Shown: positions 5,671 through 62,387 of the stretch, in pieces | Layout of the letters: every line of letters starts with the position of its first letter | How positions within the stretch are numbered: the stretch's first letter is position 1 | NCBI GenBank assembly: GCA_002422165.1 | Contig: DITQ01000010.1 | Span: 56,595 to 120,594, forward strand | From: Candidatus Pacebacteria bacterium UBA6180 | GTDB taxonomy: Bacteria; Patescibacteriota; Microgenomatia; UBA1400; PJMF01 | Length of the DNA stretch: 64,000 bases | Reading direction: 5' to 3' | Program-made: the position numbers and the translations under genes | Notes under the pieces: generated by a model | Told to the model about the DNA's origin: nothing | Seen by the model: the letters and a program-made list of their open reading frames with translations, nothing else | Database searches by the model: none

Positions 5671-5775
5671 TTTTCGGACCCTCCTTTTTTGAGAAACAAA
5701 AAAGGAGCAGGTACGAAAAATGCAAAGCGAATTTCGGACCCTTTGGTCACGAAAGACGCAACGGGTTTTCGGAAA
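5671..5775 (+). repeat. Tandem ~32-bp imperfect-palindrome repeats (locus A): GGTACGAAAaATGCAAaGCGAATTTCGGACCC x2, plus a partial half-site and a 10-bp-stem hairpin at 5683-5708
   Basis: Unit 1 (5710-5741) differs at only 2 of 32 positions from the reverse complement of the unit at 59184-59215. Unit 2 (5744-5775) is a degenerate copy. The half-site ttttcggaccc lies at 5671-5682. Each unit has half-sites GGTaCGAAA and TTTCGgACC around a 13-nt spacer. Confidence 0.75.
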
Positions 5776-56266: not shown

Positions 56267-57316
56267 CTAAAATTGCTCCAAAAATTCTAAATTACCGCTG
56301 TAAAACAAGCGAATGTCATCGATGTTTAGACCTTCCTTGAGGGTGTAGGTGCGTTCGACTCCCCAACCGAAGGCGAAACCGGTGTAAATCTCTGGGTCAA
56401 TGCCACCAGCCTTGAGGACATTGGGGTGGACCATGCCGGCACCGCCAACTTCGTGCCAGCCAGATTTACAAAAACGACAATTTTCTTTGCCGCGCGAACC
56501 AGTGCCGCGGCAAATGTGGCAACTGAAGTCAACTTCGAAAGAAGGTTCGGTAAATTTGAAGTGAAAGGGGCGGATGCGGCTTTTGGTGCCTTTGCCATAA
56601 AACTGCTCGGCGAAATAATCGAGCGTACCCTTGAGGTGCTGGATATTGATGCCCTGATCGACCACCAAACCTTCGAACTGGTGAAACATCTGGGTGTGGG
56701 TGGCGTCGCTTTGGCGACGGTAAGTGCGAGCGATGTTGATCATGCGAATGGGCGGTTTGGACTTGAGGCGCTCCATCTCACGCACCTGTCCATTGGAGGT
56801 GTGGGTGGTGAGGACGACTTTGCCCATTTTCTGGTCAGCGGGAGTGTCGACGAAGAAAGTCTCCCACTCGTCGCGTGCGGGGTGGTTTTTAGGCATATTG
56901 AGGGCTTCGAAGACGTAATAATCGAAGTCAACTTCTGGATATCTGACTCGATTGAAGCCAATTTTTTCGAAAATCTGACTAATTTCTTCGATGGCTTGGG
57001 AAATTGGGTGTAGGTGACCTACTTTTTGCCGTTCTCCAGGCAGGCTGAGATCGAGATTGCTTCCTTGGCTTTTACCCTGCTGCTGCAGATTTTGCAGGTA
57101 GCTCTCGATTTTACCCTTAAGTGAATTGAGTTCTTGACCAAAAACTTTTTTTTGATCGTTAGATAAGTTTTTGATTTCAGCTCCAAGCTGTTTGAACAAG
57201 CCGTTTTTACCCAGATACTTGATGCGCAGGTCCTCTACTTGCGCTGGTTTTTCAGCGACAAGTTTTTGCCAGAGGGCTTGGCAAAGTTGGACTGGGTCGG
57301 CTTGAGTCATGATCAT
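56267..57316 (-). CDS. pheS: Phenylalanine--tRNA ligase alpha subunit
   Basis: Class II motifs FNRVRYPEVDFDYYVFEALNMPKNHPARDEWETFF and GFAFGWGVER are present. Confidence 0.9.
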   Translation of the reverse strand: MIMTQADPVQLCQALWQKLVAEKPAQVEDLRIKYLGKNGLFKQLGAEIKNLSNDQKKVFGQELNSLKGKIESYLQNLQQQGKSQGSNLDLSLPGERQKVGHLHPISQAIEEISQIFEKIGFNRVRYPEVDFDYYVFEALNMPKNHPARDEWETFFVDTPADQKMGKVVLTTHTSNGQVREMERLKSKPPIRMINIARTYRRQSDATHTQMFHQFEGLVVDQGINIQHLKGTLDYFAEQFYGKGTKSRIRPFHFKFTEPSFEVDFSCHICRGTGSRGKENCRFCKSGWHEVGGAGMVHPNVLKAGGIDPEIYTGFAFGWGVERTYTLKEGLNIDDIRLFYSGNLEFLEQF

Positions 57317-57553
57317 TTTATATTCTAAAAATTTACCTTTAGTTTTAAAACACAGTTTCGTTCTTTAATTCAGTCCATTGAAGGCGCTGAGCTGCAGTGT
57401 AAACGAATTGCAATGCTCTTAGACAGCGCCTTCATTGAGTAAGAAGAAGATTGTTGATTTCAATGAAGCAAGCATTTTCGTCGCACGTGACTGGATTAAA
57501 GAACGAAACTGTGTTTGTATTATAACGCTAGATCTTAGCCAGGCCAAGCTCTT
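57317..57553 (-). promoter_or_regulatory. pheST promoter (TTGGCC-N17-TATAAT, minus strand) plus structured leader with nested or alternative hairpins and an 18-codon leader ORF
   Basis: The minus-sense sequence reads ...agagcTTGGCCtggctaagatctagcgtTATAATacaaacacag.... The 22-bp outer arms at 57348-57369 and 57495-57516 pair exactly. Inner hairpins tgaaggcgctg/cagcgccttca and cttcattga/tcaatgaag are mutually exclusive. The leader ORF at 57419-57475 encodes MLASLKSTIFFLLNEGAV. Confidence 0.5.
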
Positions 57554-57710
57554 TTAGGTAAGCTAACAAGTATAATTCTGGAGAATTTGATTGAAACTGA
57601 GGGTGTTTTTGCATAATTTGTCCTAAACTCTTAGCCTTGGAGGCTAAGACCTGATAGGCTTTGGAAGCCGAATTTTTTTCTGAGTCGACAAAATGCGTGT
57701 TGTCTGGCAT
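57528..57710 (-). CDS. Hypothetical 60-aa ORF between the rplT terminator and the pheST promoter (possibly spurious)
   Basis: No recognisable motif is present. Its 3' end overlaps the predicted pheST -35 region. Confidence 0.2.
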   Translation of the reverse strand: MPDNTHFVDSEKNSASKAYQVLASKAKSLGQIMQKHPQFQSNSPELYLLAYLKELGLAKI

Positions 57711-58527: not shown

Positions 58528-59157
58528 CTATTTTTTCTTGCCAATTGGGTCGATTTGTGCTTGTAGCTTCTTGCCAAGCAGTTTTGGCTCGATGCCTACT
58601 TTGCCCAAATCTTCATTTTCTTTAAAAATCCTGTTAATGACCTCGAAGCCGAGATCTTTGCGGACAATTTGACGACCCTTGAAGGTTAATGTCAATTTGA
58701 CCTTGTTGCCCTTTTCCAAAAAGTCTCTAACCTTACGGTTGCGAGCTTCGAAATCTGCTTCGCCCATGAAGGGGGTGAAGCGCAGCTCCTTGAGTTCCAG
58801 AGTCTTGGACTTTTTGCGCGTATCAGCCGTCTTTTTCTTGAGCTGATACTTGTATTTTGAAAGTTCAATAATCTTAACGACCGGCGGGTTAGCCTTCTCA
58901 GTGACTAAGACCAGGTCACTTTCTAACTCCATGGCTTTGGCCAGGGCCTCGTTGGAAGACATCTCTCCCAAGGATTCCCCAGACTCGCTTAGAACATACA
59001 CTTTGGGAAAACGAACCTGATGATTCGCCTTCACATATATTTGTTCGCTTCTATTTTTGTTGTATTTTTTTCTAATCACAAAAGATCGTTTATTATATAC
59101 CAATTGTTTAAAAATCTCGACGAGAGGAATTATAACCGATGAAGGCTGTTGTAGCAA
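58528..59157 (-). CDS. infC: Translation initiation factor IF-3 (true start uncertain, possibly a non-AUG start downstream of 59157)
   Basis: The C-terminal VKEIKFRPF-like ELRFTPFMGEADFEARNRKVRDFLEKGNKVKLTLTFKGRQI matches the IF3 C-domain. Synteny is infC-rpmI-rplT. Confidence 0.8.
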   Translation of the reverse strand: MLQQPSSVIIPLVEIFKQLVYNKRSFVIRKKYNKNRSEQIYVKANHQVRFPKVYVLSESGESLGEMSSNEALAKAMELESDLVLVTEKANPPVVKIIELSKYKYQLKKKTADTRKKSKTLELKELRFTPFMGEADFEARNRKVRDFLEKGNKVKLTLTFKGRQIVRKDLGFEVINRIFKENEDLGKVGIEPKLLGKKLQAQIDPIGKKK

Positions 59158-59183
59158 TTAGAGCTTGCGTTGCAAAAAGCGTG

Positions 59184-59290
59184 AGGGTCCGAAATTCGCG
59201 TTGCATCTTTCGTACCAAAAGGTCCGAAATTCGCGTTGCATCTTTCGTACCAGCTGCTTTTTGCCTTGCAAAAAGACAGGGTCCGAAATA
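59184..59290 (+). repeat. Tandem ~32-bp imperfect-palindrome repeats (locus B): GGGTCCGAAATTCGCGTTGCATCTTTCGTACC x2 plus partial third copy
   Basis: Near-identical units lie at 59184-59215 and 59220-59250. A partial gggtccgaaat sits at 59278-59288. The reverse complement matches locus A (5710-5741) at 30 of 32 positions. Confidence 0.8.
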
Positions 59291-59311
59291 TAATCACCAG
59301 TTGTTGTGAGT

Positions 59312-59386
59312 CGAGCTTGTAGCTCAGTTGGTTAGAGCGCTTCGTTGACATCGAAGAGGTCAGAGGTTCGAGTCCTCTCAAGCTCA
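59312..59386 (+). tRNA. tRNA-Val (anticodon GAC)
   Basis: The acceptor stem gagcttg / caagctc is perfect. The D-arm is tagctcagttggttagagc. The anticodon loop ttGACat reads GAC. A GGTTCGAGTCC T-arm is present. Confidence 0.85.
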
Positions 59387-59421
59387 CGATTTTTCAAACC
59401 AGTAATATAAAAAATAATAAA

Positions 59422-59646
59422 ATGACAGAGCAAAATATCGTAGGTTCACCACATCGATTAACTTCAGAGGAAGAGGCTGTTTGCGCATCTCGGGTATATG
59501 ACCAAGAATATTTAAATAAAATTGCTATTTTAGCCAATGAAAGAGGTATACCTGCAAATGTAATAGCAAGGGTTGTTTTATCAATGAAGCGAAACGCTTC
59601 AACTCCACATCGCTGGAGAGACTCGAGTTCTATGAAGGGAGTTTAA
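59422..59646 (+). CDS. Small hypothetical protein (74 aa)
   Basis: It lies immediately 3' of tRNA-Val. No motif I recognise is present. Confidence 0.3.
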   Translation: MTEQNIVGSPHRLTSEEEAVCASRVYDQEYLNKIAILANERGIPANVIARVVLSMKRNASTPHRWRDSSSMKGV

Positions 59647-59734
59647 ACTAATTTCTTTGGCAATTTTCACCCCATGGGAAACTCAATGGTTTTCAGCTCC
59701 AACTATATCAAATTATATCCAAATATGGTATAAT

Positions 59735-59743
59735 ATAGGCTGT
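59735..59743 (+). promoter_or_regulatory. Extended -10 promoter (TGgTATAAT) about 130 nt upstream of the GC-rich membrane-protein gene; strong RBS AAGGAGG at 59864-59870
   Basis: tggtataat is visible. aaggagg lies 6 nt before the ATG at 59876. Confidence 0.45.
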
Positions 59744-59875
59744 TCTTTCGAAACTGTGGCGATCGCTGCCACTTGGTTTGCGTGAGCAAATCTTCGGAGG
59801 AACGATCTTTAATAAAAATCATCATCCAGGCTCGCGGAGCTTGGAGGTGATTAGACAAACGCATAAGGAGGCGTT

Positions 59876-60637
59876 ATGAGCGGAAAGAGGTTTTTCATTG
59901 GGCTGAGTGCAATTGTAATCTCGCTCGCCCTGGGAGGCATCATGACCTCCCTCACCCGTGATCCGCGGTGGATTGAAATTCCACTGTGGCTCTACGGCGC
60001 CACCCTAGCACTGCTAGTGGTCTGGGGTCTTTACAGGCTATACCAGACAAAGGGGCCGGGGGTGGTGATTTTTGGAGGGATGGGAGTAGGCAGCATCGTT
60101 GCTTGCCTGCTACTGTCATACTTAGGGGGAATGTTCACGAGGTGGGGTTCCACGGTCAACGTGGCCAGCTCCCTTGGTGGATACCAAGGCAGCTGGTGGG
60201 AGTACATCGGTACTCCTGGCTTCATCTACTTGGGATTCCTGGCCGCCGCCTTTGTCACCATCTGGGTGACGGGGGCAAGCCGTTGGCTCCCAACCCTAAT
60301 TTTGGCTGGCGCCAGCTTTGCAGGCGCCCTCTATCTAGGTCAGGTAGAGGTGTTTTGGAAGGCGGCCGCTGGCGGCGCAATTAGCGTCGTCATCGGAACA
60401 GCCCTCGACCTAGGGCTGGTGAAGAAACCCTCCGCCAGCAGCGGCTTGACAGCCGTTGCTTTCGGTGCCATTGCCCACTCGATCATTTATCTGGTCGTGG
60501 GGGCGTTGCTCGCTCAGATTACTCTGAGCGTGGGGTTCTTCAATCCGTCTGCTGGGCAGACGGTCATCGCCGGCTTCCTCGCCGGTGCTGGTGTAACCAG
60601 CATGGTGAGGAACTACATTTTTTTGAGGGGGGTTTAA
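59876..60637 (+). CDS. Gly/Ala-rich polytopic membrane protein encoded by a markedly GC-richer segment (hypothetical, likely horizontally acquired)
   Basis: The 253-aa product has about seven TM helices and GxxxG-rich stretches. By eye its nucleotide composition is much more GC-rich than flanking genes. Confidence 0.55.
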   Translation: MSGKRFFIGLSAIVISLALGGIMTSLTRDPRWIEIPLWLYGATLALLVVWGLYRLYQTKGPGVVIFGGMGVGSIVACLLLSYLGGMFTRWGSTVNVASSLGGYQGSWWEYIGTPGFIYLGFLAAAFVTIWVTGASRWLPTLILAGASFAGALYLGQVEVFWKAAAGGAISVVIGTALDLGLVKKPSASSGLTAVAFGAIAHSIIYLVVGALLAQITLSVGFFNPSAGQTVIAGFLAGAGVTSMVRNYIFLRGV

Positions 60638-60653
60638 ATGCGTTTGTCGAAAA

Positions 60654-60700
60654 AGAGGTCTTGTGGAAGCGAAAGCGACCACAAGACCTCTTGATCTATT
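60654..60700 (+). terminator. Terminator-like hairpin after the GC-rich gene
   Basis: A 13-bp perfect stem agaggtcttgtgg / ccacaagacctct with a 12-nt loop is followed by a T-rich tract. Confidence 0.5.
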
Positions 60701-60836
60701 TATTTGACTGTGATTTTGTTCTAGTTAGCTGACAGCTTAAGCCAATTAACAAGCTTAAACTGACTATTTACTCTAAGGGTTGTTTTTTGTTAGACTGGTG
60801 GATGGCAGCTTTTTTGTTTTTAGGAACCCTCTCACC

Positions 60837-62387
60837 ATGCAGATCATGAGGCTGATTAGGAGAGTTTTTGCTCCTGTCCACAGGCTTACCACCAGCGAAC
60901 TACTTGCCAATTTCAAGCAATCTAACTTTTTGAAGCGTTTGCTTGGCATGGCAAAAGTCGGCGATCGCCGCTCTGCTTTAGTGCGGGCCAAAGCAGTTTA
61001 CCAGCAGCTCATCGGTGACAAGCATCACCAAGGTCAGCTAAATTCTCTTGAAGTCGAAAACATTTTTCTCACTCAAACTGGAGTACTGGTTTTTTACCAT
61101 GTCGTCCAAGGACAGCAAATTCAAATTTGGACGATGCTTTTCGAAACTGCTTCGCCACGCCATTTCCTGTGGCGCAAACCGCGTTTGATTACGGAGTTCA
61201 GAGATGAGGGGGACGAGTGGCGTTTCATCTCGCTGCAGCAAACTGACTCGAACTTTGAAGCCTTCTGGCACTCCAAACTTTTGGGTCAACTGCTCAAGGT
61301 TTATCCCAGATACCGCTTTCAGCGGCAAATCGAACTCAAAAACCCTATTCCTCTACTGATGAAGCCGCATCACTACAACCCGATGATAAGTCCGCACCTC
61401 AGAAATTCTTGGGAGGCGCTTTCGACTTTCAACCCAGCGGCTTTTTACGCTGCTGATCAAGTACATTTACTTTACCGTGCGCAAGGTTTTGACTATGTTT
61501 CGCAAATTGGTTACGCGACTAGCAGCGATGGCCTCACTGTTACCAAGCGTTTTACAGAGCCTATTTATCGACCGACAGCTGCATTTGAGGGAGCGAGTTT
61601 GCCACCTGGTGATCCAGCTGGCCAATTTGCTTCTGGTGGCGGCAGTGGTGGGATTGAAGACCCGCGTGCGACTGTTATCGATGATCGCGTTTACATGACC
61701 TACGTCGCTTATGACGGTTGGAGTCCGCCGCGAGTGGCCTTGACCTCGATTGCCTTGACTGATTTTCTGAATCACAATTTCCTCTGGGAGAAGCCGGTTT
61801 TAATTTCGCCTCCAGGCATAGTCGATAAGAGTGCCGTAATTTTTCCGGAGAAGATCAATGGCAAATACGTCATCATGCATCGAGTTTTCCCAGATATCTT
61901 AATTGACTATGTCGATTCTTTGGATTTCGATGGTAATACTTTTCTAACTGGTCAACACAAAATTTCTCCGCGCTCTCGTGATTTTTGGGACAGTCGCAAA
62001 GTTGGTGCTGGCGCACCACCCCTCAAAACCCCAGCCGGCTGGCTACTCATTTACCAGGGAGTGGATGACAAAGACGCTAGTGAATACAAGGTTGGAGCGA
62101 TGCTATTAGATCTAAATGACCCTGCCAAAGTCTTGGCTAGATCCGCTGAGCCGATTCTTCTACCCAGAGAAAAATATGAGAATAATGGTTTTAAGGCAGG
62201 CGTAGTTTACCCCTGTGGCGCCCTGATCAAAGACGACACTTTGTTCGTCTATTATGGCGGAGCTGACTCTTACGTCTGTGTCGCTACTGCTGTGCTAAAC
62301 AAATTTCTCGAAGCTTTACAAAAAACTGGCAACACCAATTTAAACTCAGTCTTATTGGCTGTAGAACAGGAAGATCCTCATGAGTAA
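60837..62387 (+). CDS. GH130-family glycoside phosphorylase/hydrolase with ~190-aa uncharacterised N-terminal region
   Basis: The C-terminal ~320 aa carry GH130 hallmarks: GIEDPRATVIDDRVYMTYVAYDG, VVYPCGALIKDDTLFVYYGGAD, WDSRKVGAG. The ORF track begins at a TTG at 60780, and the first ATG is at 60837. Confidence 0.7.
   Translation: MQIMRLIRRVFAPVHRLTTSELLANFKQSNFLKRLLGMAKVGDRRSALVRAKAVYQQLIGDKHHQGQLNSLEVENIFLTQTGVLVFYHVVQGQQIQIWTMLFETASPRHFLWRKPRLITEFRDEGDEWRFISLQQTDSNFEAFWHSKLLGQLLKVYPRYRFQRQIELKNPIPLLMKPHHYNPMISPHLRNSWEALSTFNPAAFYAADQVHLLYRAQGFDYVSQIGYATSSDGLTVTKRFTEPIYRPTAAFEGASLPPGDPAGQFASGGGSGGIEDPRATVIDDRVYMTYVAYDGWSPPRVALTSIALTDFLNHNFLWEKPVLISPPGIVDKSAVIFPEKINGKYVIMHRVFPDILIDYVDSLDFDGNTFLTGQHKISPRSRDFWDSRKVGAGAPPLKTPAGWLLIYQGVDDKDASEYKVGAMLLDLNDPAKVLARSAEPILLPREKYENNGFKAGVVYPCGALIKDDTLFVYYGGADSYVCVATAVLNKFLEALQKTGNTNLNSVLLAVEQEDPHE

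Follow-up and report, generated by a model that had tools for sequence, protein, structure and literature searches.

A GC-rich islet beside a tRNA-Val gene is one copy of a rare, self-contained expression cassette of Patescibacteria with a densely structured predicted mRNA fold

Introduction

Does a GC-rich gene that lies beside a tRNA gene in a more AT-rich genome owe its composition to a foreign donor? This question is raised by an islet in a stretch of 64,000 nucleotides (nt), here called the window, which is part of a 161-kb metagenomic contig with Patescibacteria-like core genes. The islet contains an open reading frame (ORF; 59876 to 60637, forward strand, like the other parts of the islet, the tRNA-Val gene and the GH130 genes described below) for a Gly/Ala/Leu-rich protein of 253 amino acids (aa) with ~8 predicted transmembrane helices, which belongs to an orphan family. 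The original prediction, made from the letters, had viewed the islet as a recent horizontal acquisition at a tRNA gene. Comparison with the homologues of this gene identified the islet as a copy of an expression cassette that is rare in Patescibacteria and self-contained, and indicated that selection for RNA structure explains its GC-richness better than a recent foreign origin.

Results

A cassette shared by five loci

A single homologue of the 253-aa protein was present among 5.8 billion clustered proteins (P0002, 50% identical), and two more (P0003 and P0004, ~30% identical) emerged when 1.84 billion representatives were searched exhaustively with a profile. A DNA-pattern scan detected a fifth family member in 'Candidatus Pacebacteria bacterium CG_4_10_14_3_um_filter_34_15' and three metagenome contigs. 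Just four homologues are known besides the window protein; these are 28 to 50% identical to it, and family members are 241 to 253 aa in length. Identity by codon position followed the order second, first, third in every homologue pair, indicative of a coding sequence (CDS), and the conservation of the protein is what would be expected of an ordinary functional membrane protein. No profile or fold match was detected in Pfam, NCBIfam, PADLOC, PHROGs or PDB, while an AlphaFold model (pLDDT 61) contained eight long helices. A phage or plasmid origin was rejected, there being no tblastn match in phages or plasmids and no relative in IMG/VR. An integron-type cassette was also considered and set aside.

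The five copies occupy five distinct genomic neighborhoods. These consist of tRNA-Val and GH130 genes in the window; tRNA-Val and YtxH-like small proteins in locus L004; an acetyltransferase, a 101-aa ORF, LytR_C and the ATP synthase operon in L006; FtsX in L008; and NUDIX, cupin and P-type ATPase genes in L013/L010. L004 resembles the window in that its gene, whose product is 50% identical, follows tRNA-Val and the same small ORF. The hydrophobic 101-aa ORF of L006 (9421 to 9726) lies before the cassette at an equivalent position and is unrelated to the 74-aa ORF of the window.

All five loci share a promoter, a leader of ~130 nt, a ribosome-binding site and ORF, a long-range (LR) helix and a terminal hairpin. 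The extended −10 promoter of the window, TGGTATAAT (59726 to 59734), was read directly from the letters. A consensus promoter scan does not list this site because it has no −35 hexamer; the promoter was accepted because the TGnTATAAT/ATAGG arrangement is conserved at five loci, with L004, L006, L008 and L013 having kept TGnTATAAT or one of TATAAT, TATATT and TATACT, followed by ATAGG. The transcript probably starts within this conserved ATAGG (59735 to 59739). The first leader domain (59737 to 59809) is a three-way junction composed of P0 (59737 to 59739 paired with 59807 to 59809), P1 (59742 to 59751 paired with 59794 to 59803), P2 (59756 to 59772) and P3 (59775 to 59792). It is followed by an A-rich single-stranded linker, UAAUAAAA (59810 to 59817; UCAAAAAA in three homologues), and by hairpin P4 (59818 to 59851), which has an outer 6-bp stem, an A bulge, an inner 9-bp stem and a GCG loop. 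The 5′ arm of the LR helix, LR5 (GACAAACGCAU, 59854 to 59864), abuts the Shine-Dalgarno (SD) sequence AAGGAGG (59865 to 59871), located 4 nt before the ATG. At all five loci the motif YAGACAAACGCA precedes the SD, and GGAGG lies 4 to 9 nt ahead of the ATG.

The 3′ arm, LR3 (AUGCGUUUGUC, 60638 to 60648), starts at the first base past the stop codon, and the terminal hairpin (60653 to 60692) has a 14-bp stem, whose arms (60653 to 60666 and 60679 to 60692) are 100% complementary, and a 12-nt loop with a small GC/GAAA/GC stem-loop. All five loci have UGCGUUUGUC(G/A)A past the stop codon and then a hairpin of 10 to 14 bp. This hairpin, whose U-tract is weak, is presumed to act as a terminator and to protect the 3′ end. 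The extended −10 promoter and the perfect AAGGAGG site had both been predicted correctly, the former now being upheld by its conservation at the five loci; the strong 3′ hairpin likewise exists, with a stem of 14 rather than 13 bp. An octamer, GCGATCGC, the HIP1 palindrome of cyanobacteria, is present in the P2 loop (59759 to 59766) and in a GH130 gene (60960 to 60967), probably by chance.

Covariation in the leader and the terminal hairpin

Between the window and L004, the stretch upstream of the ATG is better conserved than the CDS. The minimum free energy (MFE) structure of each leader, computed on its own, gave the same fold, and RNAalifold recovered P1 to P4 from a naive MAFFT alignment with compensatory changes at 15 of 39 pairs. 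In a structural alignment, 99.6% of 251 cells were paired and 34 of 54 pairs had changed on both sides; slid versions of this alignment paired at 39 to 48%, and none of 500 shuffles reached the observed value. Covariation was detected at 6 of 10 pairs in P1, 5 of 8 in P2 and 7 of 7 in P3, and 9 of the 15 P4 pairs had changed on both sides, with 100% of cells paired in these stems. When the terminal hairpins of the five loci were placed in register and counted by script, all 12 pairs were canonical and 10 of them covaried. The presence of G-U pairs in the conserved stems points to a sense-strand RNA. The A-rich linker is conserved in sequence and had a pairing probability below 0.15 in four full-length folds; it may be a site for ribosome standby or for protein binding.

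A covariance model of the leader, applied to 212 kb of related DNA, matched only the family loci, and it returned nothing real in viral contigs, rejecting 99 viral matches to a leader 15-mer that were attributable to chance. The leader was found always with this single gene family. A search of positions 59000 to 61000 against Rfam 15 (E ≤ 10) matched the tRNA alone, the other rows being at chance level, and literature searches uncovered no description of this leader motif or of the protein family.

A conserved, covarying three-way junction, placed ahead of a membrane protein gene and tied to one gene family, could be viewed as a riboswitch, i.e., as a ligand-sensing aptamer controlling a transporter or channel gene. 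However, junction segments J1/2, J2/3 and J3/1 differ among loci in length (0 to 4 nt) and in sequence, and the P3 loop is likewise variable, such that the five sequences exhibit no conserved pocket. The leader lacks a terminator/antiterminator pair, a consistent SD-sequestering alternative and a U-tract after P4, and it has no Rfam match. A riboswitch would also leave the LR helix and the structure extending throughout the CDS unexplained and is, on this evidence, very unlikely.

One lineage carries an interrupted leader. A 1.09-kb IS30-like element encoding a 330-aa transposase (HTH_38 and rve domains) lies inside P2 of L015 (6645 to 7737). The insertion was present in the Pacebacteria metagenome-assembled genome and two metagenome contigs (L010, 1 to ~88, and L014) and separates the family gene from its promoter, while the co-occurring strain L013 has an intact leader. 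This natural knock-out allele suggests that the gene is dispensable or costly.

A predicted helix joining the two ends of the transcript

LR5 is complementary to LR3, giving a predicted helix of 10 to 11 bp with a span of ~780 nt. Each of the four transcripts folded (~930 to 970 nt) contained this helix in its full-length MFE structure, with pair probabilities of 0.89 to 1.00 for the window and of >0.9 at most pairs for the remaining three. The two arms of the L008 helix have diverged in concert (GACAUCACAC and GUGUGAUUGUC, with a 1-nt bulge), and changes on both sides were counted at 7 of 11 pairs. The position of the helix is fixed at 2 to 3 nt past P4, 0 to 7 nt past the stop codon and 4 to 7 nt before the hairpin, indicating that it meets P4 and the terminal hairpin in a junction by which the 3′ end is tied to the leader. 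Long-range intramolecular pairing across hundreds of nucleotides of an mRNA is effective in vivo in B. subtilis, as outlined in PMC12697547.

The same sequences might act as DNA, the flanking 10- to 11-nt inverted repeats being invertase sites, transposon ends or paired operators. The pair GACAAACGCA...TGCGTTTGTC does bracket the SD and ORF, and the concerted change in L008 would also be expected of paired protein-binding sites. Several observations argue otherwise: conservation extends beyond the repeats to the promoter and leader, which they do not enclose; a single orientation was found in 14 of 14 independent contigs; the L008 pair has a 1-nt bulge or indel, which an RNA helix tolerates but recombination cores do not; the position of the repeats is fixed relative to RNA elements (P4, the stop codon and the hairpin); and no recombinase or transposase lies nearby in the window. 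We regard a function of these repeats at the DNA level as extremely improbable.

Dense predicted pairing throughout the coding region

The window transcript has an MFE of −482 kcal/mol compared to −367 kcal/mol for dinucleotide shuffles (z = −15.6), and the L006 transcript gave z = −17.1 by the same measure. Codon-permuted controls, in which the protein and the codon set are unchanged, were used for the CDS and gave z values of −12.1 for the window, −8.4 for L004, −7.5 for L006, −6.2 for L008 and −6.7 for L014; three runs with the window CDS produced −12.1, −11.9 and −11.4. The other 58 ORFs of the window ranged from −4.8 (infC) to +1.7, and the MFE per nucleotide was −0.50 for the 253-aa gene versus −0.35 or weaker for other genes. 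Amino acid composition as the sole cause of the high GC and structure was rejected, as codon permutation abolishes the extra stability; this explanation also fails quantitatively, since amino acids account for about half of the GC excess. Approximately 70% of nucleotides were paired in the full-length folds. The sense strand was favored in three of five homologues, and G-U pairs made up 14 to 19% of all pairs. When CDS pairs were compared between the window and L004, 63 to 68% were canonical versus 44% in slid controls.

The SD was exposed in the full-length fold of the window, where it is predicted to be unpaired with an opening cost of 2.7 kcal/mol. L006 and L013/L014 displayed it in a hairpin loop, L008 left part of it exposed, and L004 had it paired. 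The next most structured CDSs of the window were those of infC (58528 to 59157; z = −4.8) and pheS (56267 to 57316; z = −4.1), whose structure may be linked to the known translational or attenuation control of these genes.

Structure of this density raises the question of whether the ~960-nt transcript is itself functional, as a scaffold, sensor or membrane-associated RNA, and also encodes a protein. Dedicated structured RNAs reach z values similar to those obtained here (−15 to −17), large noncoding RNAs are found by the hallmark of GC-rich islands in AT-rich genomes, the leader is better conserved in sequence than the CDS, and the terminal junction of P4, the LR helix and the hairpin closes the architecture. 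Against this, a defined tertiary fold would need the internal CDS pairs, and these are not kept in distant homologues; there was no Rfam match (E ≤ 10); and conservation of the ORF is explained by strong constraint at the protein level. A dual-function RNA is thus improbable.

Composition of the 253-aa gene

The interval from 60001 to 60500 had the highest GC content among 128 windows of 500 nt (0.586; runner-up, 0.562). The 253-aa ORF had the maximum of all 59 ORFs for GC (~0.576 to 0.578), for GC at second codon positions (0.504) and for GC at third codon positions (GC3; ~0.673 to 0.676). Mean values for the ORFs were 0.448 for GC (standard deviation [sd], 0.043) and 0.461 for GC3 (sd, 0.086), placing this gene at approximately +3 and +2.5 sd, respectively. 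Membrane protein genes elsewhere in the window (grand average of hydropathy, >0.7) had a GC of 0.37 to 0.49 and a GC3 of 0.38 to 0.60, and the 253-aa ORF lies outside these ranges. The predicted GC-rich islet is, therefore, genuine, and its composition is not that of the other membrane protein genes of the window. The atypical composition is restricted to this one gene, as the 74-aa ORF (0.39) and GH130 genes (0.47) that share its slot are to be compared with a host mean of 0.448 and there is no shift across the whole island.

With the amino acids of the 253-aa protein and the codon usage of the host, a GC of 0.515 and a GC3 of 0.502 would be predicted, versus the 0.578 and 0.676 observed. About half of the GC excess hence comes from Gly/Ala codons and about half from synonymous codons ending in G or C. 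The latter are concentrated in predicted stems: third positions were G or C in 78% of cases in stems versus 38% where unpaired, a difference that is partly circular due to the preference of the folding algorithm for G-C pairs.

GC was elevated across the family, ranging from 0.48 to 0.58 at the five loci and from 0.51 to 0.58 in the three hosts with a measurable background (0.34 to 0.45). The Pacebacteria host has a GC of 0.34 and a GC3 of 0.25 compared to 0.52 and 0.51 for its family gene; for L006, the corresponding values were 0.41 and 0.39 for the host and 0.51 and 0.53 for the gene. GC3 of the gene exceeded that of the host by 0.14 to 0.26 in the three hosts. Synonymous sites are near saturation between the two closest copies (window and L004), indicating that the GC excess has been kept through a long divergence and was not freshly imported. 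Its maintenance in three hosts argues against a donor signature, as amelioration would have erased one. High GC thus appears from these comparisons to be a property of the gene family and not a donor signature. The coincidence of the synonymous GC excess with extreme RNA folding also counts against the donor-signature explanation.

A variable slot 3′ of tRNA-Val

The tRNA-Val(GAC) gene (59313 to 59387; ARAGORN; Rfam tRNA, 74 bits) is a conserved anchor outside the cassette, and the adjacency of the islet to a tRNA gene was thereby confirmed. The same tRNA-Val lies beside infC in relatives L018, L020 and L021. The best named relatives of the window IF3 are from Woesebacteria and Pacebacteria, and relatives whose IF3 is 80 to 86% identical have kept the order UvrD-FemAB-AA kinase-GAPDH-Tig-DUF5660-[slot]-tRNA-Val-infC-rpmI-rplT-pheS-pheT-Wzy-PBP. 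The slot is empty in L018, with a terminator after the tRNA, and contains a cytidylyltransferase-like ORF of 304/305 aa in L020 and L021, a major facilitator superfamily transporter plus a 132-aa ORF in ERZ1426840 and an 832-aa ORF in L023. In the window, it holds the 74-aa ORF, the 253-aa gene and two GH130 genes (59388 to ~64296). As the slot is empty or otherwise filled in four close relatives, this whole segment, including both GH130 genes, is accessory cargo at a hot spot, a conclusion supported by the synteny. The island is, hence, larger than originally proposed, and the gene is not conserved at this position among relatives.

The 74-aa ORF (59422 to 59646), the small protein predicted to follow the tRNA, has three predicted helices, is 55% identical to the 73-aa ORF of L004 and had no match in Pfam, NCBIfam, PADLOC or PHROG; a single-sequence AlphaFold model showed three helices at low confidence. 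It has no counterpart at the other three loci and so lies outside the conserved cassette. The first GH130 gene extends from 60837 (alternative start, 60780) to 62387, and the second extends from 62380 to ~64296, beyond the window end (gene calls from L001); both match Pfam PF04041. Both have a host-like GC (0.47) and are missing from the slot in L018, L020, L021, L023 and ERZ1426840. These adjacent mannoside phosphorylase-like genes carry long N-terminal extensions of ~180 and ~350 aa ahead of the domain.

No integrase domain was found among the 74-aa ORF, the 253-aa ORF and the two GH130 genes filling the slot, in agreement with the absence of an adjacent integrase that had been reported for the islet. 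A direct repeat of the tRNA 3′ end, which had been proposed as a check, was lacking, as the 22-mer (≤3 mismatches) occurs once in the window. The far junction of the slot in L001 (14421 to 14434) consists of just 12 nt with no repeat inside. Differences in the acceptor stem of tRNA-Val relative to the L018 tRNA are compensatory on both arms, indicating that the gene is not chimeric. At three of the five family loci, no tRNA adjoins the gene.

Whether the gene is a recently acquired foreign gene, integrated at the tRNA and with high GC as the signature of a GC-richer donor, can be weighed from these data. The 253-aa gene stands apart from the rest of the window in GC and GC3, its slot varies among close relatives, the family is extremely rare and patchy, and the IS30-like insertion in one lineage's leader suggests dispensability. 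However, neither an integrase nor a tRNA 3′-end repeat is present, and the tRNA-Val is not chimeric. L004 has the same arrangement yet only 50% identity and saturated synonymous sites, such that the association must be old or independent. Three hosts with 34 to 45% GC all keep the gene at 51 to 58%, with a GC3 excess of 0.26 in the 34% host; GH130 genes in the same slot are host-like in GC; and RNA pairing accounts for the synonymous excess. A recent foreign origin is, therefore, unlikely. Of the original claim of horizontal acquisition, accessory cargo in a variable slot stands, while "recent" and the use of GC as a donor signature do not.

A feature first taken for a palindromic repeat array flanking the islet proved to be a 35-nt direct repeat at 59186 to 59252, between infC and the tRNA. 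As L018, which lacks the islet, has four copies, this repeat is unrelated to the islet. The repeats (GGTCCGAAATTCGCGTTGCATCTTTCGTACCAAAA) are located at 59160 to 59300 in the window (59186 to 59252 by TRF) and at 5700 to 5900 in L018, are flanked by palindromic segments (GCAAAAAG...CTTTTTGC) and may have a regulatory role for the tRNA-Val or infC promoters. Between rplT and pheS, the window and all relatives examined have a conserved ORF of 59 to 63 aa for which Pfam gave no match (window, 57528 to 57710, reverse strand; L018, 7318 to 7497; L020, 7310 to 7501; L023, 5899 to 6078).

Discussion

The islet is probably best explained as a rare, end-closed cassette in which the whole ~960-nt mRNA has been selected at synonymous sites for pairing, with a compact, long-lived mRNA as the likeliest outcome of the predicted folding. 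Such an mRNA would be nuclease resistant, with P0/P1 shielding the 5′ end and the hairpin shielding the 3′ end. The LR helix would hold the ORF domain closed while it is free of ribosomes and would place the stop codon beside the initiation region, the ribosome-binding site and the upstream A-rich standby-like segment being among the few parts left exposed. Given the size of the ribosome footprint, a terminating ribosome would have to melt the LR helix, and this melting could link the final stage of translation with the region where initiation takes place. A gene of this type, independent of context and weakly transcribed, may provide a steady, limited supply of the membrane protein. The leader motif is previously undescribed and heads a closed, hyper-structured mRNA for an orphan membrane protein of Patescibacteria.

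Several points weigh against this explanation. All of the evidence is in silico and derived from five sequences. Because the structural alignment was adjusted manually to fit the structure, it leans towards it, and its fifth row joins the L013 leader to the 3′ end of L014. Covariation in the LR helix is essentially that of the single lineage L008, with one terminal pair in addition. Antisense z values were as strong as those of the sense strand in two of five homologues, exposure of the SD is inconsistent among the predicted folds of the homologues, and translating ribosomes would unfold the CDS. Distant homologues share no MFE pairs, with 48 to 53% of pairs canonical versus 40 to 42% in controls, and the correlation between their pairing profiles is no better than that of permuted controls. 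A single conserved RNA fold within the CDS was rejected for these reasons; the poor conservation of individual pairs points to selection on dense pairing itself, with individual hairpins turning over.

A broader and more doubtful proposal is that the cassette represents an undescribed class of 'closed, armoured' mRNA, a protein-coding transcript of ~1 kb that selection has shaped to resemble a viral genome. Such an mRNA would either store the message for a membrane effector until conditions release it or be a dual-function RNA acting jointly with the membrane protein that it encodes. In its reservoir form, offered just as tentatively, the locus would correspond to a hok-type killer or abortive-infection locus of giant size.

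Among 5′-3′ closed mRNAs for membrane proteins, the nearest precedent is hok, with its tac/fbi stem (PMC9841398). Toxin mRNAs of the hok/Sok type, to which aapA of H. pylori is similar, have a long-distance 5′ untranslated region (UTR)-3′ UTR helix closing the full-length mRNA, a stable 3′ stem-loop, a compact structured mRNA, a membrane-inserted product and a small autonomous locus (PMC9841398), all of which have counterparts in the cassette. By this analogy, the locus might be a hok-like or abortive-infection-like killer, in which a stable mRNA reservoir encodes a membrane-damaging protein, folding restrains translation, and release follows loss of an unstable repressor (antisense RNA or protein) or of ongoing transcription. 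The cassette is, in keeping with this, standalone, rare and patchy, located in variable regions and disrupted by an insertion sequence in some strains, and the conserved single-stranded linker could serve as an antisense or standby site. Its product, however, is a protein of 241 to 253 aa with ~8 transmembrane helices and not a peptide of <60 aa, the ORF of the window being ~5-fold longer than those of hok-type genes, and its conservation resembles that of an ordinary functional membrane protein. No mok-like leader ORF, sequence similarity to hok-type loci or PADLOC match was found, and no antisense RNA gene was detected within the 64-kb window, in which no promoter-like site lies opposite the leader and the complement of the linker occurs nowhere else. 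LR3 is internal to the terminal hairpin, such that 3′ trimming cannot free it and open the helix, and the SD is predicted to be exposed in most homologues. A killer module is, on balance, an unlikely function for this locus, and the end-closed cassette selected for pairing remains the favored explanation.

Other known systems share single aspects of this cassette. The tisB/IstR-1 pair is the paradigm for ribosome standby sites in structured mRNAs. As in that system, a conserved single-stranded segment lies at least ~50 nt upstream of a structured initiation region, while the rest of the mRNA is base-paired; unlike it, the cassette has no known trans-acting RNA, and a standby role would follow from predicted accessibility. 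The genomes of single-stranded RNA phages such as MS2 and Qbeta overlay coding with dense structure and use long-range helices that affect ribosome access. The cassette likewise combines coding and structure over ~1 kb, links distant parts and has a folding energy far below that of shuffles; it differs in being a DNA gene of the chromosome that has a promoter and terminator to itself, lacking replicase or coat genes and not being found in viral contig collections. The GOLLD, ROOL, OLE and raiA RNAs (Rfam) are also GC-rich structured islands of several hundred nucleotides in AT-rich genomes, and the adjacency of two of the five cassette copies to a tRNA gene is a further likeness. In contrast to these RNAs, the cassette encodes a conserved protein, its internal pairs are not conserved and it matches no Rfam family at E ≤ 10. 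Finally, the slot resembles tRNA-linked islands in having accessory cargo directly 3′ of a tRNA that is absent in close relatives and varies in content, and differs from them in the lack of an integrase, of an att-type tRNA-end repeat and of an island-wide composition shift. The conserved flanks, tRNA-Val/infC on one side and DUF5660 on the other, may instead allow cargo to be exchanged by homologous recombination.

Selection for secondary structure in the coding regions of bacteria is generally considered to be only weak. In contrast, this 760-nt ORF is 6 to 12 sd below codon-permuted controls in five diverged homologues and is closed by a covarying 5′ UTR-3′ UTR helix. The cassette extends known kinds of element, namely structured leaders and hok-like closed mRNAs, on a scale that is unprecedented. 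If this explanation is true, the cassette would be a natural instance in bacteria of whole-mRNA 'armouring', comparable to the engineering of therapeutic mRNAs, and would provide a tractable model for the interplay of ribosomes, RNases and long-range pairing. A caution for genome analysis also follows: a GC-rich gene by a tRNA in an AT-rich genome need not carry a donor signature, because selection for RNA structure can hold GC3 at 0.14 to 0.26 above that of the host. For the Patescibacteria, the cassette adds an orphan membrane protein family and a new leader RNA motif to a little-known regulatory repertoire.

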